From Frankiales bacterium (GTDB lineage: Bacteria > Actinomycetota > Actinomycetes > Mycobacteriales > SCTD01), in NCBI GenBank assembly GCA_025965735.1, contig JAOPWK010000076.1, positions 1 through 34,950 of the forward strand: 34,950 nt of DNA. The letters are read 5' to 3'. The position numbers and the translations under genes are program-made. Shown piece by piece: positions 13,950-23,270 of this stretch (positions are counted from its first letter, which is position 1; each line of letters opens with the position of its first letter). The notes under the pieces are model-generated. The model was not told where the DNA came from. It searched no databases and saw only the letters and a list, made by a program, of their open reading frames with translations.

Positions 13950-14560
13950 CGGTGCAGCTGCTCGTGCTGGCCAAGCAGCCGGTGGCGGGGAGGGTCAAGA
14001 CCCGCCTGTGCCCGCCGCTGACGCCGGAGCAGGCCGCACAGGTCGCCGCCGCGGCGCTCGAGGACACGCTGGAGGTCCTCCGCCAGGTGCCGGCCTCCCG
14101 CCGGATCCTCGTCCTCGACGGCACGTACGAGGCAGCCGGCTTCGAGGTGCAGCCGCAGCGTGGCGGGCCGATGCCGGAACGGCTCGCGGCGGCGTTCGAC
14201 GACGTCGATCCGGCGCAGCCCGCGCTGCTCGTCGGGATGGACACCCCGCAGCTGACCGTGGCCCTGCTGCGCGAGGCGCTGGACCGGCTGGGCGAGCACG
14301 ACGCGGTCCTCGGCCTCGCGCCGGACGGCGGCTGGTGGGCGCTGGGCCTTCAGAGGCCGGACGGCGCCCTGCTGCGCGACGTGCCGACCAGCCAGGACGA
14401 CACCGGTGCGCTCCAGCTGGCCGCGTTGTGCGCCGGCGGCCGGTCGCCCCACCTGCTGCCGGAGCTGCGCGACGTCGACACCGCGGACGACGCCCGCGCG
14501 GTGGCGGCGCTGGCGCCGTACGGCCGGTTCGGTCGGCTGGTGGGCGAACTGCTGGGCTAG
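13946..14560 (+). CDS. DUF2064-family (nucleotidyl/glycosyl-transferase-like) protein
   Basis: (V)TVQLLVLAKQPVAGRVKTRLCPPLTPEQAAQVAAAALEDTL...GMDTPQL...LGLAPDGGWWALGL matches the DUF2064 pattern. The GTG start overlaps the GT2 stop (GTGA). Confidence 0.8.
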   Translation: MTVQLLVLAKQPVAGRVKTRLCPPLTPEQAAQVAAAALEDTLEVLRQVPASRRILVLDGTYEAAGFEVQPQRGGPMPERLAAAFDDVDPAQPALLVGMDTPQLTVALLREALDRLGEHDAVLGLAPDGGWWALGLQRPDGALLRDVPTSQDDTGALQLAALCAGGRSPHLLPELRDVDTADDARAVAALAPYGRFGRLVGELLG

Positions 14561-14651
14561 TCCGTCGGCGGGTCCGCTATGCTCCTACGGTCCCCGACGG
14601 CACGACGGCGGCGGTCCTGGCCCCTCCGGCAGCCATCCGGTGAGGCACTCG

Positions 14652-14724
14652 GTCCCCATCGTCTAGCGGCCCAGGACTCCACCCTTTCAAGGTGGCTACG
14701 CGGGTTCGAATCCCGTTGGGGGCA
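14652..14724 (+). tRNA. tRNA-Glu (anticodon UUC)
   Basis: GTCCCCA TC GTCT AGCGGCCCA GGAC T CCACC CTTTCAA GGTGG CTAC GCGGG TTCGAAT CCCGT TGGGGGC A; 73 nt. Confidence 0.9.
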
Positions 14725-14778
14725 CGGCAGTCCAGTACGGCACGGCACGGCACAGCACAAAGGCCCGGTTCCACACCA

Positions 14779-14852
14779 GGCCCCGTAGCGCAGTTGGTTA
14801 GCGCGCCGCCCTGTCACGGCGGAGGTCGCGGGTTCGAGTCCCGTCGGGGTCG
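14779..14852 (+). tRNA. tRNA-Asp (anticodon GUC)
   Basis: GGCCCCG TA GCGC AGTTGGTTA GCGC G CCGCC CTGTCAC GGCGG AGGTC GCGGG TTCGAGT CCCGT CGGGGTC G; 74 nt. Confidence 0.92.
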
Positions 14853-14865
14853 CAGCACCACACCT

Positions 14866-14938
14866 GGTCAGGTAGCTCAGCTGGTAGAGCACACGCCTGA
14901 AAAGCGTGGGGTCGGCGGTTCGACCCCGCCCCTGACCA
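14866..14938 (+). tRNA. tRNA-Phe (anticodon GAA)
   Basis: GGTCAGG TA GCTC AGCTGGTA GAGC A CACGC CTGAAAA GCGTG GGGTC GGCGG TTCGACC CCGCC CCTGACC A; 73 nt. Confidence 0.92.
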
Positions 14939-14980
14939 CCCCTCATCCCCGCCAGCGGTCGCCGGCCATGGAGGTGCTCC

Positions 14981-15580
14981 GTGAGCAGCCCTCTCGACGC
15001 GGTCGTCCCGCTCGCCGGCGCTGTGCCCGGCGTGGCCTCGGCCACCGCGGAGGCACCGCACGCCGTGCGCGTCCGGCTGCTGCCCGGTGCGGACGGCGCC
15101 GAGGTCGCGCTTGCCGTGGGTCGGCTGCTCGCCGGCACGGCAGCCGGCGCGGAGCGTCATGTCCTGACCGTCCCGCAGCAGCACCGCCCCGGCCGGGCCC
15201 GGATCGACCGGCTGGACCTGCACACCGACGGTGCGTCCTTCAGCGTCGGCATCGCGCTGTCGTGCGCCGGGCGCAGCGCGACCGCCAGCGCGCGCAGCGG
15301 TACGACGGGCGCGGGGACCCGCCGAGCCGTCGCCGACGCCACGCTCCAGGCGGTCACCGGGCTGCTCGCCCACCCGGTGCACCTCGAGGTCGACCACGTC
15401 GAGCGCAGCGACGCCGGCGCGGCCCCCGTCGTCCTGGTGCAGGTCAGCCTCGTGAGCGGCGAGGGCGTGCAGCGGCTGGCCGGCTCGGCCGTGGTGCAGG
15501 ACGGCGAGGGCGACGCCGTCGTCCGCGCGACCCTGGACGCCGTGAACCGGCGCGTGGAGGCTCTGCTCGCCCCGGCGTGA
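14981..15580 (+). CDS. Hypothetical protein, paralog A of the '...LDAVNRR' pair
   Basis: 199-aa ORF. The GTG start is preceded by GGAGG at 6-nt spacing. The C-terminal half aligns with the 20064-20717 product (RRAVADATLQAV / HRMAAEATLAAL; DAVVRATLDAVNRRV / DAVARAVLDAVNRRL). I recognise no known domain. Confidence 0.65.
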   Translation: MSSPLDAVVPLAGAVPGVASATAEAPHAVRVRLLPGADGAEVALAVGRLLAGTAAGAERHVLTVPQQHRPGRARIDRLDLHTDGASFSVGIALSCAGRSATASARSGTTGAGTRRAVADATLQAVTGLLAHPVHLEVDHVERSDAGAAPVVLVQVSLVSGEGVQRLAGSAVVQDGEGDAVVRATLDAVNRRVEALLAPA

Positions 15581-15640
15581 GCCCCGCGCAGGTGCTTGCT
15601 CGTGTGTACGGTGCCGCGCAACAGCGGAGCGAGGGACGAC

Positions 15641-16480
15641 ATGAGCCAGACGGCGCGTGCCGACAGGGCGGTCGAGGCCGCCCTGCCTGCTGTCGCGCCC
15701 TCGGGCCCGCAGCAGCTGCCGGAGACGCTGCACGCCCTGCTGCTGTCGGCCTGCCAGGCTGCTGGGCTGCTCACCCTGGAGCTCGAGGTGACCGGCTGCC
15801 CGGGGCTCGCCACCACCGTCCGGCGACCTGCGCAGGTGCCGGAGCTGGTGGTCTGGGCCTCGCACGTAGCGGCGTCCCGGTGGCACGGCGGCGTGGCCCT
15901 GCTCGCCTCCGCTCCCGACGCCGGGCCGGAGCGACGGGTGGTCGTGGAGCACGCCGCCAGGACGATCAGCGAACTCGTGGCCGCGGAGCTGCGCGCCACC
16001 CAGGCAGAGACGCTGGCCCAGCGCGCGCTCGAGCTGGCCGGCGTCGACGCGCTGACGCAGGTCGGCAACCGCCGGACCTGGGAGCGCGCGCTGGACGACG
16101 AGGCGCGGCGCGCACGGCGCTACCGGACGCCGACCGCGGTGTGCGTGCTCGACCTGGACGGCCTCAAGCGGATCAACGACGAGCACGGGCATGCCGCCGG
16201 CGACGCCTACCTCCGACGTGCCGCGCAGGCCGTGCGTGCGGTGGCCCGCAGCGTCGACGTCATCTGCCGGCTCGGCGGCGACGAGTTCGGGCTGCTGGCG
16301 CCGCAGACGGACGCGGACGGGGCCCACCGGCTGGCCGCACGGCTGCGGGAGGCGCTGGACGTGGGCGCGGTCTCCGCCAGCGTCGGCGTCGCCACCGCCG
16401 AGGACGGCGGGCTGGACGAGGCATGGCAGGCGGCCGACGCCGACATGTACGGCGACAAGCGGGCGCGCTCGGGCCGCTAG
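15641..16480 (+). CDS. Diguanylate cyclase (GGDEF) with an uncharacterised, possibly GAF-like, N-terminal region
   Basis: DALTQVGNRRTWERALDDE...VCVLDLDGLKRINDEHGHAAGDAYLRRAA...RSVDVICRLGGDEFGLL shows an intact GGDEF motif and an RxxD I-site 5 residues upstream. ATG 15641 has GGAGCGAGGGA upstream; an alternative ATG is at 15596. Confidence 0.85.
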   Translation: MSQTARADRAVEAALPAVAPSGPQQLPETLHALLLSACQAAGLLTLELEVTGCPGLATTVRRPAQVPELVVWASHVAASRWHGGVALLASAPDAGPERRVVVEHAARTISELVAAELRATQAETLAQRALELAGVDALTQVGNRRTWERALDDEARRARRYRTPTAVCVLDLDGLKRINDEHGHAAGDAYLRRAAQAVRAVARSVDVICRLGGDEFGLLAPQTDADGAHRLAARLREALDVGAVSASVGVATAEDGGLDEAWQAADADMYGDKRARSGR

Positions 16481-17694
16481 CCGGAGCGGGCGAGCAGCTC
16501 TCTCGCAGCAGCGGCCACGACGTCGCCCCGGTCGCTGACGATGACGTCGTAGCGGTCCGCGCCCGCAGGCGTCGCCACCATCACCTGCGACACCGCCGGC
16601 CCCAGCAGGACCGCCACGACGTCATCGCCGGACACGTCGCGCACGGGTACGAGGTGCCGGCCGGAACAGGCCGCCGGGGCGCCGTCACCCAGGACGACGA
16701 CGCTGAGCGCCGCCTCCCGCTGCAGCACGGGCAGGTCGCGCAGGAAGCCCTCGGGGGCCAGCGACGGGTCGGGCAGGTGCATGAGCAGCACGTTCATCCC
16801 GGCGTCCACCACCGCGGCCTGGGCGAAGCCGGCCAGGTGGTCACGGACCCAGAGCCGGTCCACGACGACCCGCGGCACGTCGGCGTCCAGCCGCCGGAGC
16901 ACGTCGTCGGGGCCACGGCGGCGCGAGGCGGTGCAGCCCGGGTCGCGCTCGACCCGCACGTCGCCGGCCGACAGCAGCCGCGGTCGCGCGAACAGGTACC
17001 CCTGCCCCCACTGCGCCCCCAGGGCGGCGGCGGCCGCGCGGTCCTGCTCGGTCTCGATGCCCTCTGCGACCAGGGTGGCGCCGCTGCGCTCGAGGTACCG
17101 CTCCACCGCCCGCAGGGTGGCCATGGGCATCGCGCCCCGGGCAGCGCGCAGCAGCGGCGCGTCCAGCTTCACCACGTCCGGCTCGATCAGCGGGAGCAGG
17201 GCGACGCTCGCCTCGTTCGCGCCGACGTCGTCCAGGGCGATCTCGCAGCCGAGGTGCCGCAGCTCGTCGACCGCGGCCAGCAGGCGGCGTGGCCCGTGCG
17301 AGAGCGCACGCTCGGTCACCTCGACGACCACGGAGACCTCGTCCGTGCCGTCGACCCAGTCCGCGAGCAGGTCCTCGGGGCAGCTGCTGCCCAGGACCTC
17401 GGGCTCGGTGTTGAGGAACAGCCGCCAAGCCGGCCGCCGCGGCGAGCAGGCGCGGACGTCGCGCAGTGCGGCCACCCGGCAGGCCCAGTCCATCTCGCGG
17501 AGCCGCCCCTCAAGGCGCGCCTGCGCGAACAGCTCCGGCGGCCGCTCCCACGGCGAGCCGAGCGGCCCGCGGGCCAGCGCCTCGTACCCGATGACCTCCT
17601 CGGTCTGCAGGTCCACGATCGGCTGGAAGAGCATGCTGAGGATCGCGGTCGCCGTCGAGCGCAGCAGCGGAAGCGGCTGCACCTCTGCGCTCAC
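16477..17694 (-). CDS. EAL-domain c-di-GMP phosphodiesterase with a ~150-aa C-terminal extra domain (possibly DICT-like)
   Basis: LFQPIVDLQTEEVIGYEALARGP, FLNTEP, EVTE, ALDDVG, KLD, LVAEGIETE and GQGYLF account for all canonical EAL catalytic motifs. The C-terminal region (...VVVLGDGAP...DDVVAVLLGPAVSQVMVA...YDVIVSDRGDVVAAAARELL) is unassigned. GTG start follows GAGGGGGA. Confidence 0.85.
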   Translation of the reverse strand: MSAEVQPLPLLRSTATAILSMLFQPIVDLQTEEVIGYEALARGPLGSPWERPPELFAQARLEGRLREMDWACRVAALRDVRACSPRRPAWRLFLNTEPEVLGSSCPEDLLADWVDGTDEVSVVVEVTERALSHGPRRLLAAVDELRHLGCEIALDDVGANEASVALLPLIEPDVVKLDAPLLRAARGAMPMATLRAVERYLERSGATLVAEGIETEQDRAAAAALGAQWGQGYLFARPRLLSAGDVRVERDPGCTASRRRGPDDVLRRLDADVPRVVVDRLWVRDHLAGFAQAAVVDAGMNVLLMHLPDPSLAPEGFLRDLPVLQREAALSVVVLGDGAPAACSGRHLVPVRDVSGDDVVAVLLGPAVSQVMVATPAGADRYDVIVSDRGDVVAAAARELLARSG

Positions 17695-17818
17695 GGGTCC
17701 CCCTCGGTCGGGCGGCGCGGAACGCCACCTCGGTCGCCATGGTCTCTGCGTCGGCGCGGCCCCACCTCACCCGCGCGCGGGATCTTGGGGCTCCCCGGAC
17801 GGGGGAGACGGGCGTTCA

Positions 17819-17847
17819 TGGACACCTCTGCGCAAGCCGCCCATACT
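17819..17847 (+). promoter_or_regulatory. Sigma70/HrdB-like promoter candidate for the peptide-HK-RR unit
   Basis: TGGACA (17819-17824), a 17-nt spacer, then CATACT (17842-17847). It lies about 88 nt upstream of the small-ORF ATG, in the 240-nt divergent region shared with the EAL gene. Confidence 0.4.
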
Positions 17848-17934
17848 GCGTGCGGCAGGACCAGCGGAGCGCAGGACGGAGATCACTGAACGAGCGGAGC
17901 GGAGCCTCAACCACCTACACAGGAGGCATTCGCG

Positions 17935-18033
17935 ATGAAGCAGATCATCCGGCTGGCGGTCGTGGCAGTCACGACCGTCGCAGCGATCGTCGGTTCGACC
18001 TCAGCAGCTGGCGCCACCGTCAACTGGGGCTGA
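17935..18033 (+). CDS. Unannotated 32-aa small ORF: Sec-type pre-peptide or small membrane peptide (MKQIIRLAVVAVTTVAAIVGSTSAAGATVNWG)
   Basis: ATG is preceded by AGGAGG at 8-9 nt spacing (acAGGAGGcattcgcgATG). About 80% GC3. It has a basic n-region (MKQIIR), a hydrophobic h-region and a small-residue c-region (STSAAG), leaving only a 6-7 residue C-terminal tail (G)ATVNWG. It is followed by a strong hairpin. It is not in the ORF track (too short) and is masked by the over-extended 17739 ORF in another frame. Confidence 0.6.
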   Translation: MKQIIRLAVVAVTTVAAIVGSTSAAGATVNWG

Positions 18034-18044
18034 CCGAGGACCGC

Positions 18045-18089
18045 GGCGTCCGGCGGGCACGGGCGAGCAGCCCGCCCCCGCCGGACGCC
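18045..18089 (+). terminator. Strong GC hairpin (attenuator or partial terminator) between the small ORF and the histidine kinase
   Basis: GGCGTCCGGCGGG (18045-18057) pairs perfectly with CCCGCCGGACGCC (18077-18089), a 13-bp stem. The loop has an inner GGGC/GCCC pairing. There is no U-tract, which is common in actinobacteria. Confidence 0.5.
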
Positions 18090-18125
18090 GTCACGTCCAC
18101 CCGCTTCCCGCTGTACGCCGGGTCC

Positions 18126-19424
18126 GTGCTGCTCGTGCTGCTCGCCCTGACGGTCATCGGCCTCGCGCAGGGGCAGTGGGCGGACGTCCCCTGGCAGGCG
18201 GCGCTGTTCTGGTGCGCCATCTGCGGCCTGGCCAACCTGCTCGCTGCGCCGGCAGCCGGGCACACCTACCTCAGCATGAGCGCCCCGGTGAACATCGCCA
18301 TCGCCGTGCTCTTCCCACCGGCGGTCGCCGCTGTCCTGGTCGCCGTCGGGTCGGTGTCGCAGCTGGAGGTCCAGCGCCTGACGACGCCGCTGCGCGCCGG
18401 GTTCAACCGGACGCAGATCGGGCTGTGCACGGCCGCTGCCTCCCTGGTCCTGTCGCTGCGACCGGACCCGGTGCTCTGGACGGTGCTCCTGGCCGTCGTC
18501 ACGTACCACCTCGTGAACTGGACGCTGGTCGCCGGCGCCGAGCGCTCCCTGCGCGGCACGCCGGTGGTGCGGGTGCTCGCCGGCTTCCTGCCGCGCGGCG
18601 TCGTCGCGACCGGCACGTACCTCTCGCTGGGCGCCATGGGCGTGGTGCTGGGACTCGTCTACGGGGACATCGGCCCCTGGGCCGTGGCCCTCCTGCTGCT
18701 GCCACTGGCCGGCGCCCGCCAGGCGGTGCGAGCGACCGAGGACATCCAGCGCGTCGAGCGCGAGCGGCGCGAGCTCGCCGACCGCCTGGTCGAGGAGCGC
18801 GAGGGCGAGCGCCTGCGCATCGCCAGCGACCTGCACGACACCGTGCTGCAGAACCTGGCCGCTGTGCAGGTGCAGGCGGACAACGTCAGCGCCGCCGTGC
18901 AGCGGGCGGATCCGCGCGGCGCCGAGCTGGCGGGTGCACTGCGGACCGGGGTCGACGGCACCATCTCCGACGTGCGGCGCGTCATCGCCAATCTCCGGCA
19001 CGCCGGCATCGACGGCGACGGGCTCATCCCGACCGTCAAGCGGTACGCCGACGCGTTCTCGCGGCACGCAGGCTGCGCCGTCGACGTCCGGATCAGCGGT
19101 CCGGTCGAGTCGCTGCCCACGCCGATCGCCCTGCTGCTGCTGGAGTCCTGCCAGGAGGCGCTCACCAACGTCGCCCGGCACGCCGACGCCGGCAGCGTGC
19201 TCGTCCACGTCGAGGTGCACACCGGCCAGGTGGAGCTGCGCGTGGAGGACGACGGCCGCGGGTTCGCCAGCGACGCGGAGCCGAACGGCTTCGGCCTGCG
19301 CCTCACCCGGGAGAAGCTGGCGCTGGTCGGCGGGGGCTGCTGGGTCTCCAGCGCCCCCGGTCGGGGCACCCAGGTCGTCGTGCGTGTCCCGCTGCTGCCG
19401 GGTGGAGGCGGCCATGGCGAGTAG
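18126..19424 (+). CDS. Sensor histidine kinase, HisKA_3/HATPase_c (NarL-partner class), with a ~7-TM N-terminal domain and no sizeable extracytoplasmic loop
   Basis: H-box ERLRIASDLHDTVLQNL, N-box QEALTNVARHA, G1 EDDGRGF, G2 GFGLRLTREKL. About 220 N-terminal residues form roughly 7 hydrophobic segments. The first canonical in-frame start after the small ORF and hairpin is GTG 18126. The track ORF from 17739 runs through the small ORF region and is over-extended. Confidence 0.8.
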   Translation: MLLVLLALTVIGLAQGQWADVPWQAALFWCAICGLANLLAAPAAGHTYLSMSAPVNIAIAVLFPPAVAAVLVAVGSVSQLEVQRLTTPLRAGFNRTQIGLCTAAASLVLSLRPDPVLWTVLLAVVTYHLVNWTLVAGAERSLRGTPVVRVLAGFLPRGVVATGTYLSLGAMGVVLGLVYGDIGPWAVALLLLPLAGARQAVRATEDIQRVERERRELADRLVEEREGERLRIASDLHDTVLQNLAAVQVQADNVSAAVQRADPRGAELAGALRTGVDGTISDVRRVIANLRHAGIDGDGLIPTVKRYADAFSRHAGCAVDVRISGPVESLPTPIALLLLESCQEALTNVARHADAGSVLVHVEVHTGQVELRVEDDGRGFASDAEPNGFGLRLTREKLALVGGGCWVSSAPGRGTQVVVRVPLLPGGGGHGE

Positions 19425-20067
19425 GCAGCAGCCCGTCCGCGTCGCCATCGCCGAGGACCACGCGCTCGTGGCGGAGGCGCTCGCGACGATGTTCTCGCTC
19501 GTGGACGGCTTCGAGGTGGTCGGCAGCGTGACCTCGGGCGACGACGCCGTCGCGCTGGCAGAGCGGCTGCGTCCGGACGTCTTCCTCATGGACGTCGCCC
19601 TCGTGGGCCTGAACGGCCTGGAGGCGACGCGGCAGATCACCGCCAAGGCCCCAGAGGTGCAGGTCCTGGTCCTGACCATGCACGACGACGCCGCCACCGT
19701 GGCCCGGGCCGTGGCGGCGGGAGCCGCCGGCTTCGTGCCGAAGAACGCCAAGCGGGAGGTGCTCTTCCGCGCCGTGGAGGCGCTGGCCGAGGGAGGGGGC
19801 TACCTCGACGAGCAGGTCATGCGGCCGTTCCTGTCGGCGGTGCAGCCGCTGGTGGACGACCTCATGTCCGGGGAGCGGCTGACCGAGCGGGAGCTGGACG
19901 TGCTGCGCCTGCTCAGCCACGGCCGCTCCACCCGCGACATCGCCCAGGCGCTCGTGGTGTCCGACGAGACCGTGAAGTCGCACCTGACGCACATCTACCA
20001 GAAGCTCGGTGTCGGCGACCGCACCTCCGCGGTGGCCCTCGCCCTGCGCCGGGGGCTGGTCTCCTAG
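19414..20067 (+). CDS. Response regulator, NarL/LuxR family (REC + LuxR HTH)
   Basis: MASRQQPVRVAIAEDHALVAEAL...DVFLMDVALVGLNGLEA...LTERELDVLRLLSHGRSTRDIAQALVVSDETVKSHLTHIYQKLGV. ATG follows GGAGG and overlaps the HK 3' end by 11 nt. Confidence 0.9.
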   Translation: MASRQQPVRVAIAEDHALVAEALATMFSLVDGFEVVGSVTSGDDAVALAERLRPDVFLMDVALVGLNGLEATRQITAKAPEVQVLVLTMHDDAATVARAVAAGAAGFVPKNAKREVLFRAVEALAEGGGYLDEQVMRPFLSAVQPLVDDLMSGERLTERELDVLRLLSHGRSTRDIAQALVVSDETVKSHLTHIYQKLGVGDRTSAVALALRRGLVS

Positions 20068-20717
20068 GTCCGCAGTCGGCGGTTGACGGCGTCGAGCACG
20101 GCCCGCGCCACCGCGTCCAGCTCACCGGCTGCGCGGACCGTCGCGGTGCCGATGAGGACGTCCTCCGCGCCCGACATGCGGTGCGCGAGGCTCACCAGCG
20201 CGACCCGGCGCACGCCGAGCGGCCGCACCTCCACGCCGTCGACGTCGCTGCTCGGCAGCCCCGGGTGCAGCTCCACCAGCGCGGCGAGCGTGGCCTCGGC
20301 AGCCATCCGGTGCAGGCCGACCGCGGTGCTCGAGCGGTGCGAACCGCCGGTCGCACGCCGCTGGTCGCGGCTCAGGACGACGCTGACCGACGAGGAGCCG
20401 TGCTGGCTCTGCAGGGTCATCCCGACCAGCAGCGTCCGTCCGTCAGGAGCGGGCTGCAGGTCCTGCGCCGGCGCCGACGCCGGAGTGCCCTCTTCCTCGA
20501 GCTGGACGACGGAGACGACGTTGCGGTCCACCTCGACGCCGAAGGCCGCACGGACCAGCGACTGCACGTCGCGGACCACCTGCTTGGGGTGCTTGCCGGG
20601 GGTGGCGACGATGTGCAGCTCGAGGACGGAGTCCCGCTCGTCCGGCACGACGTGGGCGCGGGTGACGTGCGGGATGCGGCACAGCGCCCGCTCCACGTCC
20701 GGCCAGTCGATGCTCAT
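20064..20717 (-). CDS. Hypothetical protein, paralog B of the '...LDAVNRR' pair
   Basis: 217-aa ORF, MSIDWPDVERALCRIPHVTRAHVVPDERDSVLELHIVATPGKHPKQVVRDVQ... The C-terminal half aligns with the 14981-15580 product and ends ...DAVARAVLDAVNRRLRT. The stop overlaps the RR stop in CTAG. No obvious SD. Confidence 0.65.
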   Translation of the reverse strand: MSIDWPDVERALCRIPHVTRAHVVPDERDSVLELHIVATPGKHPKQVVRDVQSLVRAAFGVEVDRNVVSVVQLEEEGTPASAPAQDLQPAPDGRTLLVGMTLQSQHGSSSVSVVLSRDQRRATGGSHRSSTAVGLHRMAAEATLAALVELHPGLPSSDVDGVEVRPLGVRRVALVSLAHRMSGAEDVLIGTATVRAAGELDAVARAVLDAVNRRLRT

Positions 20718-20762
20718 CGATGGAGCGTAGCGACCAGAAGGCCCGAAACCGCCTCCTGGGAC

Positions 20763-20808
20763 GCAGACAGCGCCGCACCCCCTCGCGGGAGTGCGGCGCT
20801 GCTGTCTG
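20763..20808 (-). terminator. Hairpin downstream of bldC
   Basis: GCAGACAGCGCCGCAC ... GTGCGGCGCTG(CTG)TCTG gives about 15 bp of stem with a 3-nt bulge, starting 12 nt after the bldC stop on the minus strand. Confidence 0.5.
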
Positions 20809-20819
20809 GGCTGGGGGTG

Positions 20820-21026
20820 CTAGGCCTGCGGGCGCGGCGCCGGGATGCCGGCGAGCAGCGCGCGGACCTCGGCCTCGCGGTAGCGGCGGTGGCCGCCGAG
20901 GGTGCGGATCGAGGTGAGCTTGCCGGACTTGGCCCAGCGGGTGACGGTCTTGGGGTCGACGCGGAACATGGTCGCGACCTCAGCCGGGGTGAGCAGGGCC
21001 TCGGAGTCAGGGGTGCGTGTGCTCAT
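20820..21026 (-). CDS. bldC: BldC, small MerR-like/excisionase-type DNA-binding developmental regulator
   Basis: MSTRTPDSEALLTPAEVATMFRVDPKTVTRWAKSGKLTSIRTLGGHRRYREAEVRALLAGIP is near-identical to my recollection of Streptomyces BldC. ATG 21026 gives 68 aa, and GAGAGGAC lies upstream. Confidence 0.9.
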   Translation of the reverse strand: MSTRTPDSEALLTPAEVATMFRVDPKTVTRWAKSGKLTSIRTLGGHRRYREAEVRALLAGIPAPRPQA

Positions 21027-21140
21027 GGCGGGTCGTCCTCTCAATTACGGGCGCTCTGCCCGCGTACGAACGATCGTGCGCGATGTCGCCTTTGAGCGGA
21101 ATGGCCCATGCGGGCCATCTTGCGACTAGTCACTCCGGGC

Positions 21141-22001
21141 TCAGCTGGAGGACTCCACCGCCTGCAGCGCTTTCATGCGTGCGGTGACGCGGGTGTACGC
21201 CGCCGCCGCGCGGTCGGTGTCGCCCTCCGCGAGCGCCGCCAGGGCCAGCGCCACGTCGCGGGCGGACTCGTCCTGGCTCAGCTCGGCGTCGTCCAGCAGG
21301 TGCACCAGTCCGCCGTAGTCGAGCTCGACCAGGGACCTCGGGTGGAACTCCTCCAGCCATCGGCCGAGGTCCTCCACATCCGCCGTCACCACGCCGTCCT
21401 CCACCGTGCGCCGCAGCACCGCCAGCGCCCGCGCCACACGGCGGCGGGCCCTCGACATGGGCGTCCGGTAGACCAGCGAGCGCCCGGTGCGCACTGCACC
21501 TTGTCCTGGTGACGGCCCGAGGTGCACCTCCCGCTCCCCGGCGTCCACGAGCACGAACCAGCGCAGCGGCACGTGCCAGGTGGAGGTCAGCTGCGGCACC
21601 CGCTCGTCGGGGTGGGCCAAACGGTGCGCGTCCAGCTCCTCGCCCACCGACGCGGCCAGCGGCGCCGGCACCCACGCCGAGACCAGCTCGCGCGGCACGT
21701 CGGACAGGAACTCCTCGAGCGCCTCCAGCGACCGCAGGCGGGTGCGCCAGGGGCAGAGCAGCGTCACGCCGTCGACCTCGGTGACGTACGCGTGCTCCGG
21801 CAGCTCGGGCAGCACCGCCGGGACCAGCCCGACCAGCGCCTGCAGCGCCGCCTCGTGCTCCAGAGCCGCGCCGGCGGACGTGCCGGGCGCCTCCTGCTCG
21901 GCCAGGTAGGCCTCCCAGCGCTGGCGCTCGGCGCCCTCGAACGCAGCCAGCGGCTCGTAGACCCGCAGGTAGGCCGTGTGGCCCGCCCGGTGCGCCGTCA
22001 T
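21141..22001 (-). CDS. Conserved actinobacterial hypothetical protein, the syntenic gene between bldC and vdh
   Basis: 286-aa ORF with good coding character ([33 protein letters not shown]...). Its position matches the hypothetical gene between bldC and vdh in Streptomyces. Confidence 0.7.
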
Positions 22002-22175
22002 CCCCGGATGCTCGCACGCAGCGCCCGCACGGGGCGACGAGGGCCGAGGCCCGGAGCCTGCTCGCTACCCTTGCTGCGGGGCACACCACCTCCGCACGAC
22101 GCTGCGCCTCACGAGGGCGTGGCGACCACCCGCCGACCGGCGACGCCGGCGGCCTTCTCTCGCAGGGAGCACGCC

Positions 22176-23270
22176 GTGGGCGTCTTCGACCGGACCGACC
22201 ACCTCAAGGACGCCGGGCACGAGCAGGTGGTGTTCTGCCAGGACCGGGCCAGCGGCCTGAAGGCGATCATCGCGGTCTACTCGACCGCCCTCGGGCCGGC
22301 GCTGGGCGGCACGCGCTTCTACCCGTACGCCAGCGAGGACGACGCCCTCGAGGACGTCCTCAAGCTCAGCAAGGCGATGGCCTACAAGGCGGCGTGCAGC
22401 GGCATCGACCTCGGCGGCGGCAAGGCCGTGATCATCGGTGACCCCACCCGCGACAAGACCGAGGCGCTGCTGCGGGCGTACGGCCGTTTCGTCCAGTCGC
22501 TGGGCGGCCGGTACTACACGGCCTGCGACGTCGGCACCTACGTCCAGGACATGGACGTCATCGCCAAGGAGACCGACTTCGCCACCGGCCGCTCGCCGGA
22601 GAACGGCGGCGCGGGCGACAGCGCCGTTCTCACGGCCTTCGGCGTCTTCCAGGCGATGCGCGCCGCCGCGGAGCACACCTGGGGCGGCCCGACGCTGCAC
22701 GGCAAGCGGGTCGCGGTCGAGGGCGTCGGCAAGGTCGGCCACCACCTCGTGGAGCACCTGGTCCAGGACGGCGCCACCGTCGTCGTCAGCGACGTGAGCG
22801 CAGCCGCCCTCGAGCGGGTGCGCGCGGCGTTCCCGCAGGTCGAGGTGCTCGACGTCGACGCGCTGCGCACGGCCGAGATGGACGTGTACGCCCCCTGCGC
22901 GCTGGGCGGCTCGGTGTCCGACGAGCTGGTGCCGGTGCTGCAGGCCAAGGTCGTCTGCGGCGCCGCCAACAACCAGCTCGAGCACCCCGGCATCGAGAAG
23001 TCGCTGGCCGACCGCGGTGTCCTCTACGCGCCGGACTACGTCGCCAACGCCGGCGGGCTGTGCCAGGTCGCGGACGAGGCGCTGCACGACCAGTTCTCGT
23101 TCGCCCGGGCCGAGGCCAAGGCCGCCACCATCTACGACACCACGCTGTCGATCTTCCGGCTGGCTGACAGCGAGGGCGTGCCGCCGGCCGTGGCCGCCGA
23201 CCGGCTCGGCGAGCGCCGGATGGCCGACGTCGGCCGCCTGCGCAGCGTCCTGGTGCCCGGCCGCAGCTGA
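22176..23270 (+). CDS. vdh: Valine/leucine dehydrogenase (Glu/Leu/Phe/Val dehydrogenase family)
   Basis: From GTG 22176, with AGGGAG 6 nt upstream: (V)[50 protein letters not shown]...[18 protein letters not shown]...GVGKVGHHL. The track ORF from 21522 is over-extended. Confidence 0.9.

Follow-up and report, generated by a model that had tools for sequence, protein, structure and literature searches.

Two divergent paralogues with a predicted LeuA-type regulatory domain, found beside cyclic di-GMP and two-component signalling genes in a Frankiales bacterium

The regulatory domain shared by LeuA and CimA (PF08502; structures 1sr9 and 3fig) consists of two beta-beta-beta-alpha units and forms the C-terminus of enzymes of ~550-640 aa, where it acts in cis on the enzyme's own TIM-barrel catalytic domain. 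To our knowledge, the sole role attributed to this allosteric domain so far is that of a feedback sensor built into leucine/isoleucine biosynthetic enzymes. In LeuA, it houses the leucine site and forms a regulatory-domain dimer (PMC9860122). The present analysis concerns two open reading frames (ORFs), ORF-A and ORF-B, in a 34,950-nt stretch of DNA from a Frankiales bacterium (contig JAOPWK010000076.1; hereafter, the window). Their products share with LeuA and CimA the predicted C-terminal fold and a C-terminal helix motif (D-A-x-x-x-A-x-x-x-A-x-N), but they are standalone proteins of ~200 aa, with an unrelated ferredoxin-like N-terminal domain and signalling genes as neighbours. While the fold is known, its standalone use in a signalling cassette has, as far as can be told, not been described.

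A second point of comparison is provided by the hdgA and hdgB genes of Streptomyces venezuelae, which specify a membrane HD-GYP protein and a degenerate HD-GYP paralogue (PMC6205966), and by the MASE9 domain described by Galperin and Chou (bioRxiv 10.1101/2021.11.05.467447). The likeness lies in a tandem pair of membrane HD_5 genes that stands beside most relatives of ORF-B, one copy being intact or nearly so and the second degenerate. Partners with a LeuA domain, DUF5317 or a micro-ORF are mentioned in neither of these papers, and the window itself differs in having no HD-GYP gene and in carrying a MASE9-like domain fused to a HisKA_3 kinase. Almost nothing is known of the inputs by which membrane HD-GYP proteins are governed. 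For the MASE9-type sensor, the analysis identified conserved partner genes: one for a LeuA-domain protein of the cytoplasm, one for DUF5317, and a micro-ORF. Because members of the family described here adjoin genes of cyclic di-GMP (c-di-GMP) signalling in several bacterial phyla, they are good candidates for a missing regulatory part of such systems.

Both ORFs are genuine genes, with the codon-position composition typical of such genomes: third-position G+C was 0.92 in ORF-A and 0.91 in ORF-B, with low second-position values, in a window of ~73% G+C. Comparison of the two products by BLASTP with compositional adjustment gave E=1e-9, with 30% identity over 212 columns, and a profile built only from relatives of ORF-B recovered ORF-A at E=2e-20 to 5e-22. 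The two proteins are true paralogues across both domains. An earlier note on this DNA, made from the sequence alone, had described the pair as divergent paralogues, a claim that passed the pairwise significance test; the similarity it saw over the C-terminal ~120 residues was also found, but its restriction to the C-terminus was not, the alignment covering nearly the whole length. All five motif pairs quoted in support were present in the translations, and the alpha/beta segment proposed for both N-termini was seen in the AlphaFold2 models. The note had been unable to place the proteins in a known family, and this agrees with the present searches: neither protein matched any entry of Pfam-A or NCBIfam, neither the proteins nor the family profile retrieved anything meaningful from the PDB by sequence, database relatives were all 'hypothetical', and no paper describing the family or its genetic linkage was found in the literature searched.

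AlphaFold2 models were calculated from input alignments of 30 ORF-B-like (B-type) sequences for ORF-B and 46 sequences for ORF-A, and had mean pLDDT (predicted local distance difference test) values of 88.3 and 88.9, respectively. In the ORF-B model, residues 1-72 form a helix-strand-strand-helix-strand domain, which is followed by a disordered linker (77-89) and a C-terminal domain (94-215) containing two beta-beta-beta-alpha units at 96-215. The ORF-A model has the same plan, with a disordered linker at 56-67 and two such units in its C-terminal domain (~72-197), except that the N-terminal domain is alpha-beta-beta-alpha, without the third and last strand. When compared with the PDB by Foldseek, the top match of ORF-B was Mycobacterium tuberculosis LeuA (1sr9_B, E=3.5e-5), then 3hps_B, and the top seven matches of ORF-A were all structures of the same enzyme (3fig_B, 1sr9, 3hpz, 3hps), with a Foldseek probability of 1.00 in each case. 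The LeuA matches of the two models (E=3.5e-5 to 1e-3, over 129-184 aligned columns) fell in its regulatory domain, and the two superposable beta-beta-beta-alpha units that characterize that domain were present in both. According to these models, each protein consists of a small ferredoxin-like N-terminal domain, a flexible linker, and a C-terminal domain with the LeuA allosteric/dimerisation fold. An internal repeat within the C-terminal domain, suggested in the earlier note, exists at the structural level in the form of the two units, while by sequence it was marginal: hhalign gave P=2.7e-4 and 42% probability with a broad alignment, and no significant result with the B-type alignment, so that the repeat is read from the predicted structure.

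The N-terminal domain of ORF-B, which carries the motifs KHPKQxVRDxQS and DRxVxSVVQ, gave only partial Foldseek matches, to the ferredoxin-like C-terminal domains of ZnT8, ZnT3 and MamM and to A-sub domains of nonribosomal peptide synthetases (NRPS). The alpha-beta-beta-alpha-beta topology is like that of several ferredoxin-like domains (ZT_dimer/MamM, HMA, ACT/RAM type, NRPS A-sub) but the sequences are not: some family members showed weak Pfam matches to ZT_dimer, HMA and TM1266-like, all far below threshold, and the invariant B-type residues of this domain corresponded to no known motif found.

A link to LeuA was also evident among the relatives of ORF-A. Matches to PF08502 (LeuA_dimer) at E<=0.1 were seen in 15 of the 46, and two of these, P0156 (26.3 bits) and P0164 (25.6 bits), exceeded the gathering threshold of 24.9 bits; six of the other 13, scanned singly, scored 21.3-24.8 bits. 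The matches span profile positions ~34-129 of 131, and the proteins concerned are 38-41% identical to ORF-A. Given these matches and the Foldseek results, the C-terminal domain is a divergent LeuA-type allosteric domain, and the motif-level resemblance to LeuA, put forward only weakly in the earlier note, proved correct. The proteins are not themselves enzymes of the LeuA type, as neither had an HMGL-like Pfam match and the N-terminal domain is an alpha/beta module of ~70 residues, instead of the TIM barrel and accessory subdomains of isopropylmalate and citramalate synthases. No LeuA or CimA gene was present among the 177 loci fetched for comparison (numbered with the prefix L).

The family is large. 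ORF-B had 950 detectable relatives in a word-indexed search, all unnamed or 'hypothetical', and an alignment of 30 diverse ones contained 37 invariant columns. With sequences clustered at 50% identity, an exhaustive profile search returned 4,174 cluster representatives at E<=1e-3 and 974 at E<=1e-30, and the clusters sampled had no informative names. Nearly all of the 150 representatives listed were 204-396 aa long, and since almost all members are of 205-360 aa, they are nearly all standalone proteins. Two main types, A and B, differ in their N-terminal domains, and all types have in common the C-terminal helix R-A-x-L-D-A-x-N-R-R. A fusion search with the B-type N-terminal domain retrieved only short proteins (<=135 aa), those examined being gene fragments or frameshifted copies; it found no domain fusions, and provided no Rosetta-stone clue. 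In a metagenome-assembled genome (MAG) of Ruthenibacterium lactatiformans (L177, 5001-5626), the gene call splits the family gene into two ORFs (101 and 111 aa) that overlap, probably through a frameshift or assembly error, and similar artefacts may account for many database proteins of ~100 aa that are 'N-domain only'. Another locus (L158, 5212-6384) has a single open frame with two C-domain profile matches, a partial one at 110-191 and a full one at 264-387, and its product may carry a duplicated LeuA-like domain.

As the earlier note had stated, ORF-A and ORF-B lie at the two ends of a cluster of GGDEF, EAL, histidine kinase and response regulator genes. The linkage is not an accident of the window, as it recurs in relatives and in other phyla. 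The block of B-type gene, response regulator, histidine kinase, 32-aa ORF, EAL, GGDEF and A-like gene was kept with ORF-B relatives of 59-81% identity (L081, L084 and L088); in L081 it had wholly different flanks, and in L088 the separate GGDEF gene was replaced by a nearby GGDEF-EAL protein. The pairing is also finer than the cluster as a whole, with B-type genes going with a MASE9-type membrane sensor and A-type genes with a GGDEF cyclase. B-type genes were found in 588 species genomes, the closest there being merely ~42-45% identical to ORF-B. Neighbourhoods were counted in the best 80 of those loci, almost all from Acidimicrobiia, 61 of which had >=4 kb of upstream sequence. A membrane HD_5 gene (MASE9/HD_5) lay upstream of the B-type gene, on the opposite strand, in 54 of the 61, and was immediately adjacent to it in 39 of those 54, usually as a tandem pair; DUF5317 was also present in 50 of the 61. 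The combination of B-type gene, HD_5 and DUF5317 was found again in a Segeticoccus MAG, and a co-directional cassette of family gene, HD_5, optional second copy and DUF5317 occurred in L092, L175, L163/L166, the Clostridia loci L093/L094 (where it adjoins spoIVB and spo0A), L176 and L177.

The HD_5 partners of B-type genes carry a MASE9-type membrane domain. The Firmicute copies retain intact HD, HHE and GYP motifs, those of Actinomycetota have partly degenerate ones, and the second copy is degenerate everywhere. The membrane domain of the window kinase matched a profile of these HD_5 neighbours at E=2.6e-16, and the kinase matched the HD_5 protein of L092 by BLASTP at E=2.6e-9; its match to Pfam MASE9 (PF20972) was weak and below the cutoff of 24.3 bits (20.9 bits, E=3.8e-4), and one HD_5 neighbour has an unmarked precomputed MASE9 match. 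On this sequence evidence, the membrane domain of the kinase is homologous to that of the HD_5 neighbours. In most lineages the sensor has an HdgA/HdgB-type HD-GYP phosphodiesterase as its output, and in that of the window a HisKA_3 kinase; B-type genes are coupled across phyla to the MASE9 sensor whatever its output domain.

From these data we infer that A and B are trans-acting, probably dimeric, ligand-sensing regulatory subunits of c-di-GMP modules, a function whose chances of being the correct one are put at about even. The earlier note had likewise seen in them candidates for ligand-binding adaptors. If true, this would be the first LeuA-type allosteric domain to serve as a standalone signalling module, and would provide a name and a hypothesis for several thousand 'hypothetical proteins'. 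Three rivals, namely RNA or ribosome binding, reception of c-di-GMP, and neutral synteny, are less well supported.

The possibility that the proteins bind RNA or the ribosome, with each alpha-beta-beta-beta-alpha half resembling a double-stranded RNA-binding domain (dsRBD) or a hibernation factor, is raised by lower-ranked Foldseek matches to tandem dsRBDs, PUR repeats, Rv1738 and a hibernation factor, and by the position of the cassette directly after hpf in L092, L175 and L176. It is very unlikely. Those fold matches are weaker than the ones to LeuA, mostly with E-values of 4e-3 or worse, no match to Pfam dsrm was found for ORF-A, ORF-B or 76 relatives, and the support at sequence level goes to LeuA_dimer. 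As to the position, hpf and secA form an old syntenic pair, seen in the gene order of Bacillus and Mycobacterium, into which the cassette has been inserted: in L176 it sits between the two genes, and secA is likewise downstream in L092, with DUF5317 annotated in both loci. This suggests that the hpf-adjacent site is an old, vertically inherited insertion point.

A different rival accepts the link to c-di-GMP but reverses its direction, the proteins being receptors or effectors of c-di-GMP or pGpG that read the output of their neighbours instead of feeding in a metabolic signal. The recurrent linkage to GGDEF, EAL and HD-GYP genes would be explained equally by this, and the conserved positions are rich in Arg and Asp: B-type N-terminal domains from Actinomycetota to Clostridia are invariant at E-x-H, PKQxVRDxxS, D-[RH]-R and SxxQ (E33, H35, K45, Q46, R49, D50, S53, D64, S69 and Q72), and Arg residues of the C-terminal domain are conserved throughout the superfamily. 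However, the A-type N-terminal domain is different and less conserved, and lacks those residues; neither PilZ nor any other known c-di-GMP receptor domain in Pfam was matched by ORF-A, ORF-B or the 76 relatives; one A-type clade has no c-di-GMP genes as neighbours; and the nearest relative by structure has an amino acid, not a nucleotide, as its ligand. Reception of the dinucleotide is therefore considered unlikely.

A-type genes are found in more than one context. In L086, L005, L013, L043, L048 and L057, a third family member of ~192 aa (A'-like) follows a GGDEF gene, with an overlap of 4 nt, inside the HD_5/DUF5317 module. In two lineages remote from each other, A-like genes are coupled to that of a GGDEF cyclase, and in distant lineages the coupling is translational. 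That every A-type protein goes with a GGDEF gene was considered and rejected, because the main A-type clade, of proteins of ~214 aa with 38-41% identity to ORF-A, is located elsewhere, in a region with the order TetR, DUF3107, LigD, Ku, family gene, coiled-coil protein and MoeZ-like. In L090 and L101-L155, the ~214-aa A-type gene is followed, after a gap of 54-142 nt, by a co-directional gene for an alanine-rich, acidic protein of ~460-480 aa that is probably a coiled coil.

Several observations weigh against the regulatory-subunit interpretation. ORF-A and ORF-B are themselves below the Pfam threshold for LeuA_dimer, with no match to PF08502 even at E<=1, and none of the 30 B-type members matched it at E<=0.1. 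The region occupied by the main A-type clade has no c-di-GMP genes nearby, so the family as a whole is not dedicated to c-di-GMP. The Acidimicrobiia neighbourhood is syntenic throughout, and within that class alone the linkage could therefore be inherited gene order. Lastly, B-type genes are never clearly co-transcribed with the sensor in Actinomycetota, being divergent from it there and convergent in the window, where ORF-B is likewise not co-transcribed with the two-component operon. The placement of an A-type clade in an unrelated core region, together with the extended synteny and the separate transcription, favours a third rival, in which the linkage reflects inherited gene order without functional coupling and the proteins have a general metabolite-sensing or housekeeping role beside incidental neighbours. 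This is given some weight but is not considered probable: the triad of family gene, HD_5 and DUF5317 is kept from Actinomycetota to Clostridia while all other surroundings differ, the block of the window type retains both A and B when its flanks change, the GGDEF and A' genes overlap by 4 nt in six loci, and the sensor domain of the partner stays constant while its output switches from HD-GYP to kinase.

If A and B are regulatory subunits, each protein would dimerise via its LeuA-like domain, by analogy with the behaviour of that domain in LeuA, bind a small molecule there, and then act in trans. The target of modulation by B would be the cytoplasmic output of the MASE9 sensor (in the window, the activity of the kinase and hence the LuxR-type regulator), and that of A the neighbouring GGDEF cyclase; together they would tie the synthesis and breakdown of c-di-GMP to a cytoplasmic metabolite. 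Obvious candidates for the ligand would be a guanine nucleotide and, if LeuA and CimA are taken as a guide, a branched-chain amino acid; an A/B heterodimer may also form. The block in the window looks like a rewired version of an older cassette (micro-ORF, MASE9 sensor, DUF5317 and B), in which a kinase and regulator would have taken the place of HD-GYP, and which would have gained an A-type paralogue as well as EAL and GGDEF enzymes as separate proteins. A broader scenario can be offered tentatively, as a possibility of well below even chance: that an ancient cassette of Actinomycetota and Firmicutes, comprising a micro-peptide, MASE9 sensor, DUF5317 and standalone LeuA-domain protein, uses the LeuA domain in trans to couple c-di-GMP turnover to a metabolite, and that the lineage of the window duplicated the protein, one paralogue serving the two-component system and the other the diguanylate cyclase.

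The micro-ORF is located directly upstream of the gene for the MASE9-type sensor, whether the latter is a kinase or an HD-GYP protein. Its counterparts in L081 (10690-10788), L084 (10682-10780) and L088 (3204-3302) are 81-84% identical to it, another lies in L086 (7601-7690), and in at least 29 of the 61 genome loci (within L001-L080) the MASE9-HD_5 gene has a related ORF of 28-32 aa ahead of it. The consensus outside the window is MKKxYVRxAxLxxSxAALLLAGGA...W[KR]. The product resembles a signal peptide with a tail of ~5 residues, or a single-pass membrane micro-protein. Possible roles are those of a pro-peptide signal and of a small protein partnering the sensor.

Features of the block in the window are listed in Table 1. 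The overall order is GT2 glycosyltransferase, DUF2064, three tRNAs, ORF-A, GGDEF, EAL, 32-aa ORF, HisKA_3 kinase, REC-GerE, ORF-B, BldC-like, DUF8083-like and ELFV dehydrogenase.

Table 1. Coordinates of ORF-A, ORF-B and surrounding features in the window.
Feature	Position	Strand	Remarks
tRNA-Glu, tRNA-Asp, tRNA-Phe	14652-14941		cluster ends 40 nt ahead of ORF-A
ORF-A	14981-15580	+	199 aa, A-type; start matches that of L084, the relative with the 81% block; matches family hidden Markov models
GGDEF diguanylate cyclase	15641-16480	+	279 aa from ATG 15641; Pfam GGDEF E=3.7e-31
EAL phosphodiesterase	16477-17694	-	405 aa; EAL motif intact; Pfam EAL E=8.5e-38
Micro-ORF	17935-18033	+	32 aa, MKQIIRLAVVAVTTVAAIVGSTSAAGATVNWG; upstream of kinase
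Sensor histidine kinase	~18126-19424	+	~430 aa; MASE9-like membrane domain, HisKA_3, HATPase_c (Pfam)
Response regulator, REC + GerE/LuxR	19414-20067	+	Pfam Response_reg, GerE
ORF-B	20064-20717	-	217 aa, B-type; C-terminal domain ends in DAVARAVLDAVNRRL
BldC-like, HTH_17/MerR	20820-21026	-	68 aa; just upstream of ORF-B, same strand
DUF8083-like gene	21141-22001	-	named from the annotation of L084
ELFV (Val/Leu-type) dehydrogenase	22140-23270	+	divergent from BldC-like and DUF8083-like genes

Some gene starts were revised. The GGDEF gene, which lies 60 nt 3' of ORF-A on the same strand, was given its start by a ribosome-binding site and by the length of homologues (278-279 aa), the first-start ORF beginning at 15596. 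The first-start ORF of the kinase (17739-19424, 561 aa) is ~130 codons too long, judging by homologues of 422-431 aa whose alignment with it begins at residue ~141, and the likely start is a GTG at 18126 or 18135. Translation of the cyclase gene showed an intact GGDEF motif and RxxD I-site, and the EAL gene was found in the same position in L081, L084 and L088. The C-terminal ~165 aa of the EAL protein and the N-terminal ~130 aa of the GGDEF protein had no Pfam match; these parts may be domains for sensing or docking.

The stop codons of the response regulator and ORF-B overlap within a CCTAGG palindrome (20064-20067), so their convergent transcripts must overlap; stop overlaps of the same length (4 nt) were seen in L084 and L088. 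No terminator-like sites were found within 14500-22200, and the sole sigma-70-like site of the region, at 17819-17847, is upstream of the micro-ORF. The BldC-like, DUF8083-type and ELFV dehydrogenase genes are found beside the block of L084 as well, but not beside that of L081, and the nearness of bldC and the valine dehydrogenase to ORF-B was set aside as a functional link, since the L081 block occurs without them. Composition across the block showed no anomaly (G+C of 0.73-0.77). Because the block extending from A to B is found between a tRNA cluster and bldC here and between other flanks in L081, it may have moved as a unit.

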